A stretch of 64,000 nt of DNA, from positions 257,323 through 321,322 of the forward strand of contig CAVUOQ010000012.1 in assembly GCA_963743175.1 (NCBI GenBank), read 5' to 3'. This DNA is from an uncultured delta proteobacterium. GTDB taxonomy: Bacteria > Desulfobacterota > Syntrophia > Syntrophales > Fen-1087. A program made the translations under genes and the position numbers. The notes below the pieces were generated by a model that was not told the origin of the DNA, ran no database searches, and saw nothing but the letters and a program-made list of their open reading frames with translations. Of the stretch, positions 3,858 to 47,730 are shown one piece after another; positions within the stretch are counted from its first letter, which is position 1, and each line of letters opens with the position of its first letter.

Positions 3858-5553
3858 ATGGACAAGAAGTCCCTTATTGCCATTGTTTTGTCTATTCTGG
3901 TGGTTTTTATCTACCAGACGTATTTTGCACCACCGCGGCCACCCAAACAGCCGGACCCCACAATCAAGGAAACCCCCGCAGCGCCGGATGCCAAGCAGGT
4001 TATGGCGCCCGCGACCGGCTGCCAAGCAGACCATGGCAGCCGCGCCGGAACGGAAAGCGCCGGCCTTGGCCAAAGCCAAACCGGCCGCTGTGCCGGTAGT
4101 CATCCCGGAAAAAGAGATCACCGTCGATGCCAAACTCTACAGGGCCGTTTTTACGACGAAAGGCGCTGTGCTGAAATCGTTCAAATTAAAGGACTACCGC
4201 AAAACACCGGCCAAAGATGCGGAATTGATCGAACTGGTCCGGATCAAAGAGGGCATGCCCGGACCGCTTGGCATGACCTTTTCCGAATCCGATATCGCTA
4301 TCCCCGCCGACGGAATGTATGAAACGGACACCACGGCTCTGGACCTGAGCAAGGCACCCGAGCGGAACCGTTTGACGCTTTCCCGGACCTATCCCGATCA
4401 GATAAAAGTGGAAAAGATTTATACGTTCAATCCGTCCGGGTATAACTTGGAACTGGAGGTCCGGGTTTACAATCTCTCCGGCGCCCCCATCAACCAGAAC
4501 GCCCTGTTGAGCTGGCACGAATATGTGGATCCCAAGGCCAAGACGGACAGCTACACCCACGAAGGCCCCGTGATCTTTGTCGCAAAAAGCGTCGAACGCG
4601 AAGAGGTCAAGAACATCACCAAGGAAAAAAGCTTCGGACCGGACGTGTCCTGGGGCGGATTCGAAACCAAGTACTTCATCGCCGCGATGATCCCCCAGAA
4701 TCCGTCGCTGACCAGCCTCGTTGTGTCTCAGGACAGCCGGAATATGGTTTCCACGAGCCTGAAAGGCCCGAAACATCTGATCCCCGCCGGGCAGGCCGGG
4801 TCGTTCAGTTACACGCTTTTCCTCGGTCCGAAGGATCACAGCATCCTCAAGGCCCTGGGCGTCGGCCTGGAAGACGCCATCGACTTTGGATCATGGATGA
4901 AGTGGCTGGCCATGCCGATGCTTGTTATCCTCAAGTATATCAACAACTTCGTAAATAATTACGGCATCACGATCATCATCCTGACGATCCTGATCAAAAT
5001 CGCCTTCTGGCCCTTGGGAAACAAGAGCTACAAATCCATGAAGGAAATGCAGAAACTGCAACCCAAACTCCTGGAACTTCGCGAAAAGTATAAGGGCGAC
5101 AAGCAGAAAATCGGTCAGGAGACCATGGCCATGTACAAGACCCACAAGGTGAATCCCCTGGGGGGATGTCTTCCCATGGTGGTTCAGATCCCCGTCTTTT
5201 TCGGTCTTTACAAAACCCTGCTGTATGCCATCGAACTCCGCCATGCTCCATTATTCTTGTGGATACAAGATCTGTCAGCACCCGATACACTCTTCGGACA
5301 CATACCATCATGGATTCCTTTAATCGGAGGCTTTGCCCTGGGTCCATTACCCATAGTCATGGGGGCCACCATGTTCATCCAGCAGAAGATGAGCCCGCCT
5401 GCCGGCGATCCCATGCAGCAGAAAGTCATGCTCATCATGCCGGTGGTCTTTACGTTTCTCTTCCTGGACTTTCCCTCGGGGCTGGTCATCTACTGGCTGT
5501 TCAACAATATCCTGAGCATCGGCCAGCAATACTACATCCTGAAAAAAAAGTAA
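3858..5553 (+). pseudogene. yidC: membrane protein insertase YidC, N-terminal anchor in a different frame from the body
   Basis: The insertase core (..WPLGNKSYKSMKEMQKLQP..PLGGCLPMVVQIPVFFGLY..) is in ORF 3877..5553. The expected N-terminal signal anchor MDKKSLIAIVLSILVVFIYQ is in ORF 3858..4322. The frames meet around 4005-4020. Confidence 0.9.
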
Positions 5554-30948: not shown

Positions 30949-31000
30949 AATAAAAGAGATTCTGTTTACGTCGCACTTGTAGAAATAAATTCGATTTCCC

Positions 31001-31168
31001 GAGACTTTCGTAAAAATGGCTTTGCCGCGACTCAAAAATCTTTTCCGCTAAGAGGACAACCAAGCGCAATCATGATTCAGGACAAACCGTTAACGTCATT
31101 TCTGGAAAGGCGGAAAACATTTGATTCGCCGCTTGCAAACCATTTTTCATCAGTTAAGCAAAGCCCTC
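31001..31168 (-). repeat. long-hairpin intergenic repeat, family 1, copy D (inverted)
   Basis: GAGACTTTCGTAAAAATGGCTTTGCCGCGACTCAAAAATCTTTTCCGCTAAGAGG...GGAAAACATTTGATTCGCCGCTTGCAAACCATTTTTCA. Confidence 0.8.
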
Positions 31169-31170
31169 TT

Positions 31171-31440
31171 TCACTCCGCCTTGCTTTTCACTCTTGCCTT
31201 TGCCTGCTCAATCAGATCGATGAGTGTCGTCAATTTGTCCCCTTGAATCTGCCGGGAAAAACGCTCCCATTCCGCCGTCGACATGTTTTCCCTTAGATAG
31301 GCTTCCACGGGGAAAAATGCCTGCCAGCATTTGATCGTCCGCTGACAGGGCAGATCCCCGGCTTCCCTGCGACAGTAGGAAAAATTGAGCTCGTGTCCAA
31401 GCCTCGGACATCGAATCTCCAGATGATCATATTGATCCAT
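31171..31440 (-). CDS. hypothetical small protein with four Cys
   Basis: 89-aa ORF MDQYDHLEIRCPRLGHELNFSYCRREAGDLPCQRTIKCW... No family recognised. Confidence 0.5.
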   Translation of the reverse strand: MDQYDHLEIRCPRLGHELNFSYCRREAGDLPCQRTIKCWQAFFPVEAYLRENMSTAEWERFSRQIQGDKLTTLIDLIEQAKARVKSKAE

Positions 31441-31526
31441 GGGCCTGCCCCTTTGAAGCTTCAGAAAAAATACCCCTCTCCTTTTCTCTGAAGGGGGCCA
31501 AGGGGGATTTTAAAATCAGCATGGCT

Positions 31527-31576
31527 AAAAACAGCAGAACCGTCAAGGAAAATCATGACTTTCCCTGGCGGTTCTG
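31527..31576 (-). terminator. Rho-independent terminator downstream of trpB2
   Basis: The minus strand reads CAGAACCGCCAGGG-loop-CCTTGACGGTTCTG followed by CTGTTTTT, beginning 17 nt after the trpB2 stop. Confidence 0.55.
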
Positions 31577-31592
31577 TCTGAACGCAATCAAT

Positions 31593-32955
31593 TTACGGTT
31601 TCGGGAATCCTTCAATGGCCTTCAAGGCACGCTGAATCTCTTCATCGGGCAACTCATAGGGTGTCAGTTTCCCGGCAAAGTAGGCCTCATAGGACGCCAT
31701 ATCCACCAGGCCGTGACCGCTCCAGTTGAACAGGATGACCTTTTCCTTGCCCTCCTCTTTGGCGCGTCGGGCCTCGTCCACCACGGCAGCGATGACATGG
31801 TCCGTCTCCGGCGCCGGGATGAACCCCTCGCTCCTGGCCCACCTGACACCGGCCTCAAACGTCTCCAGCTGGTGGTAGGCCCTTGCCTCGACGAGATTCT
31901 CGTGGACCAGATGGCTGACAATGGGCGCCATGCCGTGATAACGGAGACCACCCGCATGGATGGGCGCAGGGACATAATCGTGTCCGAGGGTGTACATGGG
32001 CAGCAGGGGGGTCTTCTTGGCCAGATCGCCGAAGTCATAAGCAAAGGGACCCCGGGTCATGGTCGGACAGGACGTCGGTTCGGCGCCGACGATCCTCACT
32101 TTTTTCCCGTGGATCTTGTCGCGCACAAAGGGCATGGAGATACCGGCAAAGTTGCTGCCGCCGCCGGCGCACCCCATAACCACATCCGGATAGACGCCGA
32201 TCTTTTTCAGCTGTGCCTGAGCCTCCAGGCCGATGATGGTCTGGTGCAAGAATGACATGATTCAGCACGCTCCCGAGCGAATAACGCGATTCGTCGCGGC
32301 TGACGGCATCCTCGATCGCCTCGCTGATGGCGATGCCAAGGCTGCCCGGAGAATCCGGATGTTCCGCCAGGACCTGGCGACCGGCCTCGGTGACAGTGCT
32401 GGGGCTGGGGATGCATTCGGCGCCCCAGGTCTTCATCATCATTCGCCGATAGGGTTTCTGTTCATAACTCACCCTGACCATGAAGACGCGGCATTCCAGG
32501 CCGAACATCTGGCAGGCCATGGACAGAGCGCTCCCCCATTGCCCGGCGCCGGTTTCCGTGGAGATTCGCTTGATCCCGAATGCCTTGTTGTAATAGGCTT
32601 GCGGAATGGCTGTGTTCGGCTTGTGCGAACCGGCCGGGCTGTTTCCTTCCTTCTTGTAGTAGATCTTCACCGGGGCATTCAACAGTTTTTCGAAATTCCG
32701 CGCCCGGTATAACGGCGTGGGGCGCCAGAGCAGGTATTTCTGCAACACCTCGTCAGGGATATCAATCCAGCGCTCGGTGCTGACTTCCTGCTCGATGAGG
32801 TTCATGGGAAAAATGGGGGCCAGGTCCTCCGCAGCAACAGGTTTCCCCGTCCCCGGGTGGAGGGGGGGACTCATCGGCGTCGGCAGATCGGCCATGATGT
32901 TGTACCATTGCCGGGGTATCTCGTCATCGTTCAATAAGACTTTCATCTGTTCCAT
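31593..32955 (-). pseudogene. trpB: TrpB2-type tryptophan synthase beta chain, split by one frameshift (possibly a sequence error)
   Basis: ORF 32035..32955 (..[24 protein letters not shown]..) and ORF 31593..32258 (..[11 protein letters not shown]..) are the N- and C-parts. The frames meet at about 32245-32255 (SVLNHVIL | [10 protein letters not shown]). Confidence 0.9.
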
Positions 32956-33005
32956 AACTTCTCCTCCCTTTGTTTGTTCTTTTTATGGTTGTTTGCCGTT
33001 ATATG

Positions 33006-33038
33006 AAAACAAAAAAGCCATGGGATTTTCCCATGGCT
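33006..33038 (-). terminator. intrinsic terminator of the trpB2 leader (attenuator)
   Basis: The minus strand reads AGCCATGGG-AAAAT-CCCATGGCT followed by TTTTTTGTTTT, about 50 nt upstream of the trpB2 ATG. Confidence 0.65.
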
Positions 33039-33095
33039 TTTGATGATCGATCCGGAGTCATGGGAAGGTCTCCCCTGCCCACGGCTCATCTTATC

Positions 33096-33179
33096 TCAGA
33101 AAAAGAACACCGGCGGGCAGACGCTTTGAGCCTGCCACCACCAGGATAGATTTTTTCGACACTCACTTCGATTCATCAT
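33096..33179 (-). CDS. Trp-rich leader peptide (27 aa, MMNRSECRKNLSWWWQAQSVCPPVFFF)
   Basis: Hand translation. The RBS GAAGGTGAG lies 4 nt upstream of ATGATG. Three consecutive TGG codons at 33143-33135. TGA stop at 33098-33096. Confidence 0.65.
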   Translation of the reverse strand: MMNRSECRKNLSWWWQAQSVCPPVFFF

Positions 33180-33265
33180 CAGTCTCACCTTCACTTGCGG
33201 GTCCCGTAACACAAACAAAAAACGGATGTCAAGCCAAAACTTGTTGAAACCGTAAAAATTATTTT

Positions 33266-34468
33266 TTAGATTTCCATGTTCGACATGAAACCCTTGTGCC
33301 GCCGGTACCAGAGATTTGGAAATAAATAGTAGAAAAACCGCGAGAACGGACCGATGAATTCCCGGGTCCGCCGGTCAAACTGGCAGGCCTGAATAATCAT
33401 CTCCCGGATGTCATCCCGGGTGTTTCCCTCATTGAAAATCTTGTAGGCGCAGTGAAAGAGGGGGCTGTACATGTTCTTTTTTTCCAGATATTTGTGAACA
33501 TTGCGGATGGTATTCGGCCCTTCCGGAGTCCCGTCGATCCGTTCCAGCACCTTGAGATTGGTTTCAATGGGATTGCCTGTGAGCAGCTCATAATATAGTT
33601 TACCATACCGGTAATTTTTGCTGGCTTCCGACGAGACGGTCACATACATGTCGCCGACCCCCGCCTGAGAGTGAAAGGCCTGAAAACTGCCGCCAAGCAA
33701 TCTCGAAAGGGAGCGGATTTCCACACCGGATCTTGCAAAGATCGTCCCCGGAATGGAATCCCCCAGCATCAACGAATCCGTGAGTCCCTTGATATTGGCA
33801 ACGATATTCTTAAGGGAGCCGCAGGCCTCCACGCCGACAATGTCAACATTATAATAGACACTGAGTTCCCGACGGTTATACCGGATCAGTTCCTCCCTGA
33901 ACAGGGCGGATATCTTTTTCTTCCCGGCGACGGTGACGCAGATTGGATTTCCCATGGCAATATCGACGTCAAAGAAAGGCCCGCCGACGCACGCGATATG
34001 GTATTTGTGCCTGATGTTGTACAAGTAGCTGTTGATCAACTGGGACGGTGTGATCAGTTCTTTCGTGATTTCATCGGCAGTGAGTCCCTTGATCGGCGAA
34101 ATCAGGCAGGTATCCCCCGCCTTTTTCTCCAGCAGCGGCTTCAGATAGTTCAGAAATTCCGGAAGGCGCGGCATGGTAATGCAAAGCAGAATCAAATCGT
34201 TGTCTTCCACCACGCGCTCCAGGTTGTTCGTTGCCGTTACATTGGGCGGCAACAGCGGAACATGCTCCATTCCGCCCAGCTTCCTCGCCAGATCCTGGGT
34301 CAGATGCCGCGGATTGAGGTGCTGTTTGTTGATCTCCTGGCAGACGGCTGCGTCGTGATAATAAATGGTCACCCGTTTATGATCGCGCCCAAATTTATAG
34401 GCAAAGGACGTCCCGAGCCGGCCGGGACCGATAATGGCGATACGACTGGTATCCAGTTCTGAAATCAT
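33266..34468 (-). CDS. NAD(P)H-dependent glycerol-3-phosphate dehydrogenase-family protein (long form)
   Basis: N-terminal Rossmann motif IAIIGPGRLGT. Resembles GpsA by eye over its length but is about 400 aa. Confidence 0.7.
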   Translation of the reverse strand: MISELDTSRIAIIGPGRLGTSFAYKFGRDHKRVTIYYHDAAVCQEINKQHLNPRHLTQDLARKLGGMEHVPLLPPNVTATNNLERVVEDNDLILLCITMPRLPEFLNYLKPLLEKKAGDTCLISPIKGLTADEITKELITPSQLINSYLYNIRHKYHIACVGGPFFDVDIAMGNPICVTVAGKKKISALFREELIRYNRRELSVYYNVDIVGVEACGSLKNIVANIKGLTDSLMLGDSIPGTIFARSGVEIRSLSRLLGGSFQAFHSQAGVGDMYVTVSSEASKNYRYGKLYYELLTGNPIETNLKVLERIDGTPEGPNTIRNVHKYLEKKNMYSPLFHCAYKIFNEGNTRDDIREMIIQACQFDRRTREFIGPFSRFFYYLFPNLWYRRHKGFMSNMEI

Positions 34469-34764
34469 AAAGGCCAGGAACGAAAAAAAATATAAAATGA
34501 CATTAAGTGAAAATATTCAAATTCACTATGGCCGCACGGGCGGAAACCTGAAAATTCTAAATAGTATAGGAAAGCAAAGACCAAGTGTCAAGGAAAAATG
34601 AAAAATATCTAAATAAATCAATGACATAGAATTACTAATCCTTACTGTGACGACATCATCCCAGATTTCGTCACAGCAAGGATGATAAATTCGTAAAAAG
34701 TCAGGAATTCCCTCCCCCTCGACGGGGGAGGGTTCGGGTGGGGGTGGTAAATGACTTGATTCAA

Positions 34765-35601
34765 TCATCTCTTTTCCCCCTCCCCTTCATCCCCTCCCGC
34801 AAGGGGAGGGAAAAAGGGGTTTTTTACGCAGTCGTCAAGGATAAACCGGGTCATCTCCGCCAGTACCCTTTCCCGGGCCTGAAGATGCGGGACATGGCCG
34901 CAGTCCGCGATAATCAATGGTTCGGCCGGACCGGAAGCCCCGCTCACGATAGCTTCAATCTGCGCGGGTGTCCCGTATTCGTCGTCCCGCCCCTGGATCG
35001 CCAGAACAGGGCAACGGACGCCGGGCAGGTATTCCTCAATGTTCCAGTCCCGGAAAGCAGGGGAAAGCCAGGTGTCCGACCAGCCCCGGAAGGCCGTCTC
35101 GGTATTATTTCCATGATGCCTGGACAGGCGGTCCGGTAGGTCCGTGGAGGTGTAGATCCTGACGGCCTCGCGAATTCCCGCCAGCGTGACTTCCTCCACG
35201 AAGACGTGAGCCGCTTCTGTGATGATGCCGCGGACTTTTTCCGGCCGGACGGCCGCAAAGATGAGGGCAATCGAACCGCCGTCGCTGTGACCGATCAGGA
35301 TGGCGTCGTCGATCTGCAACTGCCGCAAGACTTCCGGCAGACTCTGCAGGGCTTCCTCATGGAGATACCGAGCTGAGCGCGGCACGTCCAGCGGATCGGC
35401 GTTTCCATAGCCCCGGCGTTCATAAATGACGGCAGGCAGACGGGTGGCCAGGCTGACCGCAAGCGGAAAATCGCGCCACTGTGAGATACTGCCCAGTCCT
35501 TCATGAAGAAAAATCAGTGTCGTCCCTGGTGCGTCTGCTGGACGCACAAACGGTTCGATGATTTCTACGGGGAGCCGGCAGCGACCGTCATGGATGTTCA
35601 A
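34765..35601 (-). CDS. alpha/beta hydrolase
   Basis: LIFLHEGLGS and the nucleophile elbow GHSDGG. The C-terminal tail is encoded by a GC-rich repeat module. Confidence 0.85.
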   Translation of the reverse strand: MNIHDGRCRLPVEIIEPFVRPADAPGTTLIFLHEGLGSISQWRDFPLAVSLATRLPAVIYERRGYGNADPLDVPRSARYLHEEALQSLPEVLRQLQIDDAILIGHSDGGSIALIFAAVRPEKVRGIITEAAHVFVEEVTLAGIREAVRIYTSTDLPDRLSRHHGNNTETAFRGWSDTWLSPAFRDWNIEEYLPGVRCPVLAIQGRDDEYGTPAQIEAIVSGASGPAEPLIIADCGHVPHLQARERVLAEMTRFILDDCVKNPFFPPLAGGDEGEGEKR

Positions 35602-47653: not shown

Positions 47654-47730
47654 GCCCCCGTAGCTCAGTAGGATAGAGCAACGGATTCCTAATCCGTGTG
47701 CCGCGCGTTCGAATCGCGCCGGGGGTACCA
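47654..47730 (+). tRNA. tRNA-Arg (anticodon CCT), CCA encoded
   Basis: Hand-folded cloverleaf: acceptor GCCCCCG/CGGGGGT, D arm GCTC..GAGC, anticodon stem ACGGA/TCCGT with loop TTCCTAA, T arm GCGCG-TTCGAAT-CGCGC, discriminator A, CCA. Confidence 0.9.

Follow-up and report, generated by a model that had tools for sequence, protein, structure and literature searches.

We analyzed a 64,000-nucleotide (nt) stretch of DNA from an uncultured delta proteobacterium of the Syntrophales (contig CAVUOQ010000012.1; the whole stretch is called the window here) and found that trpB2, the gene for a stand-alone TrpB-like enzyme, is preceded by a short leader. This leader very probably acts as a ribosome-mediated (leader-peptide) transcription attenuator and ties the transcription of trpB2 to how much charged tRNA-Trp is available, as judged from sequence comparison and modelled folding. 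It combines a short open reading frame (ORF) of the translated type, a run of Trp codons, a Rho-independent terminator and a conserved pairing that excludes the terminator, which are the elements of this class of attenuators. The corresponding geometry, in which the antiterminator prevails when the ribosome stalls and the terminator when it reaches the stop codon, was seen in silico only. Transcription-translation coupling and a response to Trp are predicted for this leader. The Trp codons would be the cognate signal, since a TrpB2-family enzyme makes Trp from indole.

The leader is located on the minus strand. Read directly, the 310-nt spacer between a glycerol-3-phosphate-dehydrogenase-like (GPDH-like) gene (33266-34468) and the trpB2 start (32955) holds the whole of it. 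The features of the locus are given below in the order of transcription, followed by the two flanking genes.

33227-33232, minus strand: -35 hexamer TTGACA of the leader's own predicted promoter, read directly and conserved in orthologues
33203-33211, minus strand: extended -10 element TG-T-TACGGG, with an 18-nt spacer to the -35 hexamer; predicted as a promoter element from its conservation
33184-33192, minus strand: Shine-Dalgarno-like sequence GAAGGTGAG, 4 to 7 nt 5' of two ATGs
33096-33179, minus strand: leader ORF, ATG ATG AAT ... TGA, 27 codons plus stop, encoding MMNRSECRKNLSWWWQAQSVCPPVFFF; read directly
33135-33143, minus strand: regulatory codons UGG UGG UGG; read directly
33098-33096, minus strand: stop codon of the leader ORF; read directly
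33130-33143, minus strand: segment 1, UGGUGGUGGCAGGC, overlapping the Trp codons and forming the 5' arm of hairpin 1:2; from folding and alignment, as are the five segments that follow
33110-33122, minus strand: segment 2, GUCUGCCCGCCGG, predicted to pair with segment 1 or segment 3
33072-33087, minus strand: segment 3, GAGCCGUGGGCAGGGG, predicted to pair with segment 4 (anti-antiterminator) or segment 2
33055-33068, minus strand: segment 4, CCUUCCCAUGACUC, predicted to pair with segment 3 or segment 5 (antiterminator)
33030-33041, minus strand: segment 5, AAAAGCCAUGGG, 5' arm of the terminator
33006-33024, minus strand: segment 6, CCCAUGGCUUUU, 3' arm of the terminator, continuing into the U-tract UUUUUUGUUUU
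31593-32955, minus strand: trpB2, encoding a TrpB-like pyridoxal-phosphate enzyme, with the Shine-Dalgarno sequence (SD) AAGGGAGGAG just upstream and an extra base at 32248
33266-34468, minus strand: GPDH-like gene, upstream of the leader, ending at 33266

The terminator hairpin AAAAGCCATGGG-AAAAT-CCCATGGCTTTT (33041-33013) has a 12-bp stem that is followed directly by UUUUUUGUUUU, and the T-run reaches 33006. It ends 51 nt 5' of the trpB2 start codon and about 35 nt 5' of the trpB2 SD, which the hairpin does not sequester. This hairpin was the sole terminator-like site found on the minus strand within 31400-34600. Two further complementarities were identified in the leader: UUCCCAUG (33066-33059) is complementary to CAUGGGAA (33035-33028), and CUGCCCGC (33120-33113), at the end of the ORF, pairs with GUGGGCAG (33082-33075). 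The initial annotation of this DNA had described a ribosome-binding site, a 27-codon ORF with three TGG codons at 33143-33135 and a stop at 33098-33096, a GC-rich terminator hairpin whose T-run extends to 33006, some 50 nt short of trpB2, and the first of the two complementarities. Our reading of the minus strand reproduced all of these. It had also paired the end of the ORF with 33081-33074; this pairing held, with its site one base away from that position.

A chance origin of the leader can be excluded, because TGGTGGTGG is rare (0.0016 occurrences expected by chance in the 310-nt spacer), because the fold of the leader beats that of shuffled sequences, and because more than 100 independent sequences have the same unit upstream of trpB2. 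The folding energy of the 211-nt leader is -75.5 kcal/mol, compared with -60.0 +/- 4.7 kcal/mol for the shuffles (z = -3.3), and the leader is more stable than 200 out of 200 of them.

Conservation of the leader ORF and its promoter

An ORF that starts at an ATG and continues through the TGG run was found in the TGG frame in 92 out of 111 distinct leaders, compared with 3 and 8 in the other two frames. Among 92 orthologous leaders, 76 have an SD-like purine-rich triplet 5' of the in-frame ATG. The ATG and the first Trp codon are most often 9 codons apart, and the stop comes 10 codons later. The run comprises 3 or 4 Trp codons in the orthologues and 2 in the diverged members L012 and L017, and the typical peptide can be written as M-x(about 9)-WWW(W)-Q-x3-[V/I]-C-P-stop. 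Conservation of the leader ORF and of its Trp codons upstream of orthologous trpB2 genes had been set beforehand as a test of the proposed attenuator, and both were found to be kept.

The conserved C-terminus raises the question of whether the peptide itself is functional, either through TnaC-like arrest at high free Trp, which would have the opposite polarity, or through a peptide or leader RNA acting in trans. The motif WWWQxxx[VI]CP-stop is widely kept, and a C-terminal Pro before the stop resembles TnaC. In Sinorhizobium, trans functions have been documented for the trp attenuator RNA rnTrpL and the peptide peTrpL (PMC6614838, PMC7298713). However, W-Q and V-C-P, the residues that are conserved, coincide exactly with RNA stems 1 and 2, the two arms of hairpin 1:2, and the residues encoded by the loop vary freely. 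The N-terminal residues are unconserved and vary freely among orthologues. The C-terminus is variable or missing in some members: a few leader ORFs end right after WWWQ, and the window variant is extended past the Pro by PPVFFF. In addition, the pairing logic predicts read-through when the ribosome stalls on the Trp codons, i.e., biosynthetic polarity. The pattern fits selection on the reading frame, the Trp codons and the RNA pairing, and not on a peptide. A TnaC-like or otherwise functional peptide is thus unlikely to be the primary mechanism, and we consider this explanation as a whole to be improbable, although the released RNA or peptide may have a trans role on top of attenuation. A TnaC-like arrest peptide was also tried as a specific candidate and was rejected, as a conserved peptide independent of RNA pairing was not found.

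We then turned to the region upstream of the ORF. The motif TTGnnn-N(13-16)-TGnTAnnnn was found in 97 out of 109 distinct orthologous upstream regions, and the -35 element is TTGACA in 87. The motif ends approximately 57-63 nt 5' of the first Trp codon. We infer promoter activity for this conserved -35/extended -10 motif, and its conservation suggests that the leader is transcribed as a unit of its own and does not belong to the tail of the upstream gene. A simple consensus promoter scan of the window region did not flag the leader promoter, because its -10 hexamer is not TATAAT-like. As a separate observation, the combination of a perfect TTGACA with the extended -10 TGnTA(C/G)G.. may inform on sigma-70 promoters in Syntrophales.

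The promoter and the ORF both bear on the explanation that the hairpin is a mere intrinsic terminator of the upstream GPDH-like gene and that the Trp-rich ORF arose by chance in the spacer. The GPDH-like gene is on the same strand, no other terminator-like site was found after it, and the hairpin, being palindromic, scores on both strands. However, about 225 nt separate the upstream stop codon from the hairpin, and the conserved TTGACA/extended -10 promoter lies between the two. The frame of the ORF, its Trp run and the position of its stop are kept in more than 100 sequences. The leader also tracks trpB2: it was found behind other upstream genes and was absent at several loci that retain the GPDH-like gene. 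Since the alternative pairings are conserved as well, which speaks against a simple terminator, this explanation seems hardly credible to us.

Alternative pairings and the modelled switch

We predicted a consensus structure from 17 genome-derived leaders with RNAalifold. Three hairpins were predicted independently, namely 1:2, 3:4 (middle) and 5:6 (terminator), of which 1:2 extends into the last two Trp codons. Pairs were then counted on a MAFFT alignment of 98 leader sequences. In the terminator scheme (1:2/3:4/5:6), 98.5% of cells were paired, compared with 44-50% when the partners were slid against each other. In the antiterminator scheme (2:3/4:5), the corresponding values were 94.6% and 40-56%. 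By helix, pairing reached 99.0% in helix 1 (1:2; 96 distinct sequences), 99.6% in helix 3 (5:6), 97.5% in 2:3 and 91.8% in 4:5, where the outermost pair is weak. Compensatory changes were present in both schemes, and one 2:3 pair that had been left free by the search pattern changes from U-A to C-G in 27 sequences. The U-tract of the terminator was also conserved across the leaders. Two mutually exclusive pairing schemes are kept across the leaders, and the predicted wiring is one of six segments, with three hairpins and two alternative pairings, like that of the his-operon leader.

To model the switch, we folded transcripts ending before segment 6, which mimics the co-transcriptional decision point, and masked the part covered by the ribosome. 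In the window, the duplex energies are -16.9 kcal/mol for 1:2, -17.9 for 2:3, -17.6 for 3:4, -13.4 for 4:5 and -21.5 for 5:6. The free window leader formed 1:2 and 3:4, leaving segment 5 unpaired, and with the ribosome mask on the second or third Trp codon it formed 2:3 and 4:5. Across the leaders, the Trp-stall mask gave 2:3 together with 4:5 in 80 out of 98 and 4:5 in 84 out of 98, and the mask on the stop codon gave the anti-antiterminator 3:4 in 73 out of 98. The terminator and antiterminator alternatives that the initial annotation had asked for in the leader and its orthologues were thus recovered, with both schemes kept and ribosome-mask folding giving the switch.

We propose the following mechanism. 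Transcription would begin at the leader's own promoter, and a ribosome would translate the 27-codon ORF while the polymerase makes the six segments. When Trp-tRNA is ample, the ribosome would pass the Trp codons and reach the stop, where it would cover segment 2 or let 1:2 re-form behind it. Segments 3 and 4 would then pair, segment 5 would be free to form the 5:6 terminator, and transcription would end about 50 nt before trpB2. If the leader is not translated, 1:2, 3:4 and 5:6 would all form and lead to termination too. When Trp-tRNA is scarce, the ribosome would stall on UGG-UGG-UGG and mask segment 1, leaving segment 2 exposed. Segment 2 would capture segment 3, and the freed segment 4 would capture segment 5 ahead of the synthesis of segment 6. 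This would block the terminator, and trpB2 would be transcribed.

A structured leader could also sense Trp without translation, as a T-box binding uncharged tRNA-Trp, as a riboswitch or through an RNA-binding protein such as TRAP. Sensing of this kind controls Trp genes in other phyla, and the leader is indeed well structured. However, it matched no Rfam family. A search of the whole window at gathering score gave no leader match, and a search of 31000-35000 at E <= 10 with permissive filters gave only chance-level matches (terminator hairpin against rli61, E 0.74). The conserved SD, ATG, reading frame and Trp codons would be superfluous for a sensor made of RNA only, and the leader has only three simple hairpins, with no conserved multi-helix ligand pocket. 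We regard translation-free sensing as very improbable. Two specific candidates were tried and rejected. For a T-box leader, there was neither an Rfam T-box match nor a T-box core sequence. For a TRAP leader, which has 9-11 (G/U)AG triplets with 2-3 nt spacing, not even three consecutive triplets were found in the 310-nt spacer.

Control could also act mainly on trpB2 translation or mRNA stability and not by premature termination of transcription. There is a precedent for this, as some leader ORFs act via translational coupling or reinitiation (PMC4833913). Against it, the last hairpin has the form of a canonical intrinsic terminator, with its 12-bp stem, UUUUUUGUUUU and conserved U-tract, and it leaves the trpB2 SD unoccluded. 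The unoccluded SD and the canonical U-tract favour transcription termination over translational control, to which we give little credence.

The regulated gene, distribution and natural variants

We analyzed the trpB2 product after repairing its reading frame at 32248. It scored 745 bits against NF009057 (cutoff 366) and 654 bits against TIGR01415 (cutoff 519), both above cutoff, and 151 bits against the TrpB1 model TIGR00263 (cutoff 392), which is below cutoff. By these scores, the window gene is a member of the TrpB2 family and not TrpB1. A tblastn search with E. coli TrpA, B, C, D and E over the 64-kb window found no trp-pathway homologue besides trpB2, in agreement with the earlier statement that the window holds no other trp genes. 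In 200 loci searched in the same way with TrpA-E, the sole other trp gene was a TrpC homologue in L066. The gene order GPDH-like gene, trpB2, rarA/mgsA is common to many relatives. With no other trp gene and this common order, the description of the gene as a stand-alone trpB2 is therefore correct. TrpB2 genes located outside operons form the largest TrpB2 group (PMC1854888). A second trpB2-like copy was observed within the same 9-kb locus in two Desulfobacterales-like genomes (L074 and L077), and neither copy has the leader.

The frame-repaired TrpB2 had matches of up to 96% identity, in sequences named Syntrophales, Smithella, Syntrophus or "Deltaproteobacteria". A scan of species-representative genomes identified 80 trpB2 loci at 68-96% identity, and in 27 of them TGGTGGTGG was located 157-381 nt 5' of trpB2 within a short ORF. 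The covariance model of the family had one match in the window (106 bits, 33010-33149). Among the 80 species-level loci it matched 26, all of them Syntrophales-like and all immediately 5' of trpB2; ten of these 26 loci were outside the training set. In 37 more distant loci (Desulfomonilales, Desulfobacterales and others), the model had zero matches.

We expanded the search to metagenomes using a pattern drawn from segments 1-3, which returned 120 stretches. Of these, 101 have trpB2 approximately 100-400 nt downstream, 8 are on contigs too short to tell, and the remaining 11 are chance matches in high-GC coding sequence. No leader was found before any gene other than trpB2, either among the genome matches or among the metagenome stretches. 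Judging from these matches, the leader is specific to trpB2 and to Syntrophales-like genomes.

Several observations weigh against the attenuator reading. First, covariation in the alignment is modest and most stem positions are nearly invariant; near-invariance is expected where one segment has two partners. Second, the metagenome leaders were chosen by a pattern that fixes parts of segments 1-3, so the conservation of these parts is inflated. Third, the Trp-stall model fails in 18 out of 98 leaders and the stop-codon model in 25 out of 98. In the window, whose extended ORF puts the stop only 8 nt before segment 3, the stop-codon model is ambiguous, as the mask gave 4:5 and not 3:4; here, 1:2 re-forming behind the ribosome would still favour termination. 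At equilibrium, the full-length window leader retains the terminator although the ribosome is stalled, and antitermination would therefore have to rest on co-transcriptional kinetics, as in classical attenuators. Fourth, trpB2 is frameshifted in the window and split into two overlapping ORFs (32035-32955 and 31593-32258). The cause is one extra G at 32248, outside a homopolymer, which the relatives L001, L134, L094 and L043 do not have at this site. The frameshift could be a true mutation, making trpB2 a pseudogene, or an assembly error. Finally, the distribution of the leader is patchy. It is absent from about 16 out of 42 evaluable Syntrophales-like loci, syntenic ones included, and the closest genome, L001 (TrpB2 96% identical), is also leaderless.

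In L001, the leader has been removed by a clean deletion of about 221 nt at 3912-4000. Lost with it are the promoter, the ORF, segments 1-4 and the terminator's 5' arm; GGGAAAATCCCATGGCTTTTTT is all that is left, and trpB2 sits 88 nt behind the upstream gene in what is a natural attenuator-less variant. This clean deletion shows that the leader acts as a separable module. In a diverged leader subfamily (L022:168-314, L029:3833-3979 and L030:3834-3979; also L031, L034, L026 and L028), a U-tract was found after 3:4 also, giving two tandem terminators under one Trp leader. When this subfamily was folded, the relay of 2:3 and 4:5 upon a Trp stall opened both terminators, in L022 even at equilibrium.

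Disrupted trpB2 frames were observed in three other cases among 180 loci (L043, L095 and L168). In L043, which is 93% identical and has the leader, about 30 codons are lost with a change of frame at 5122-5127. The window's own clade thus shows several lesions in the leader-trpB2 module (the window, L001 and L043). The split of trpB2 had been missed by the initial annotation, as had the conserved promoter upstream and the middle hairpin 3:4.

Two other features were noted in the window. A long GC-rich inverted repeat (GGGAGGG...CCCTCCC) at 34706-34814, between an alpha/beta-hydrolase gene and the GPDH-like gene, draws chance-level Rfam microRNA matches and may be a bidirectional terminator or a repeat element. 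One tRNA gene (47654-47727) is the sole Rfam match in the window at gathering score.

Significance and relation to known systems

The leader family is well populated (more than 100 sequences) and absent from Rfam, and it is missed by current genome annotation as a result. It would extend classical leader-peptide attenuation to the Thermodesulfobacteriota. Stand-alone TrpB2 is widespread, and its physiological role (indole salvage, back-up synthase or other) is still argued. A leader that reads tRNA-Trp charging would make TrpB2 part of the response to tryptophan starvation across an entire order of syntrophic bacteria and would be regulatory evidence that TrpB2 serves Trp supply. The L001 deletion variant and the tandem-terminator subfamily offer ready-made comparisons. 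Our literature search found no earlier Trp leader before a stand-alone trpB2, nor one in Syntrophales, although the search was incomplete and this is absence of evidence only. A 2004 paper on regulons of delta-proteobacteria makes no mention of tryptophan.

A bolder proposal, to which we assign only a small chance of being right, is that attenuated TrpB2 provides a starvation-induced route to Trp from external indole, obtained by cross-feeding in methanogenic consortia, and that in some lineages it is perhaps the main final step of Trp synthesis. The leader RNA or peptide would perhaps also act in trans, as rnTrpL and peTrpL do. If so, the lesions in the window's clade (the L001 leader deletion, the window frameshift and the internal loss in L043) would mark lineages that are abandoning the indole route.

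The E. coli trpL leader (Rfam RF00513, Trp_leader) shares with the trpB2 leader a promoter-proximal short ORF, an SD and consecutive Trp codons, with an intrinsic terminator ahead of the structural gene. Also shared, in the proposed mechanism, are an antiterminator that excludes the terminator, the selection between them by a stalled ribosome, and the biosynthetic polarity. The two differ in that trpL has two Trp codons and four segments and precedes trpEDCBA, whereas the Syntrophales leader has three codons and a predicted six segments and precedes a single stand-alone trpB2. They also differ in taxon, with trpL in Gammaproteobacteria and the trpB2 leader in Syntrophales (Thermodesulfobacteriota). 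The RF00513 model matched neither the window at gathering score nor the region 31000-35000 at E <= 10. The trpB2 leader would therefore work like trpL without being a member of the Trp_leader family. The architecture had been described initially as that of an E. coli trpL-type attenuator, and this was right for the hallmarks of the mechanism, which are conserved, but not for the segments, which are six and not four, or for family membership.

In the his operon leader of Salmonella and E. coli (Rfam His_leader), hairpins A:B, C:D and E:F alternate with B:C and D:E. The same relay is predicted here: a stall leaves the second segment free, and the signal reaches the terminator through two alternative helices formed one after the other. 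In both leaders, three hairpins form without translation and lead to termination. The his leader differs in its seven His codons (versus Trp codons), its sequence, its target gene and its taxon, and no homology is implied.

Tryptophan-responsive control of a stand-alone trpB2 has a counterpart in Methanothermobacter, where Karr et al. (J Bacteriol) reportedly described in 2008 the repression of trpB2 by TrpY. TrpY is an archaeal DNA-binding repressor that senses free Trp, whereas in the Syntrophales leader it is a ribosome that is predicted to sense tRNA-Trp charging.

Trp attenuators with UGG leader peptides and terminator/antiterminator structures have been predicted in Actinobacteria by comparative genomics (Seliverstov et al. 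2005, PMC1262725). One of them, in C. diphtheriae, lies before a second trpB copy (trpB2A) (PMC1262725). The Syntrophales leader shares with these attenuators the UGG leader peptide, the terminator/antiterminator pair and, in that case, the position before a gene called trpB2. However, in C. diphtheriae this second trpB copy shares an operon with trpA, whereas the gene here is a stand-alone member of the TrpB2 family (TIGR01415), and the actinobacterial attenuators are unrelated to the Syntrophales leader in sequence and clade.

Like the trpB2 leader, trpL of Sinorhizobium is a ribosome-dependent Trp attenuator before a single trp gene and yields a short terminated RNA, which is predicted here. 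It differs in that it precedes trpE(G) and has documented trans functions, whereas the Syntrophales leader precedes trpB2. Compared with all of these systems, and on the evidence of its sequence, the trpB2 leader is a new family of classical ribosome-mediated attenuation, in a new clade and with a new target.

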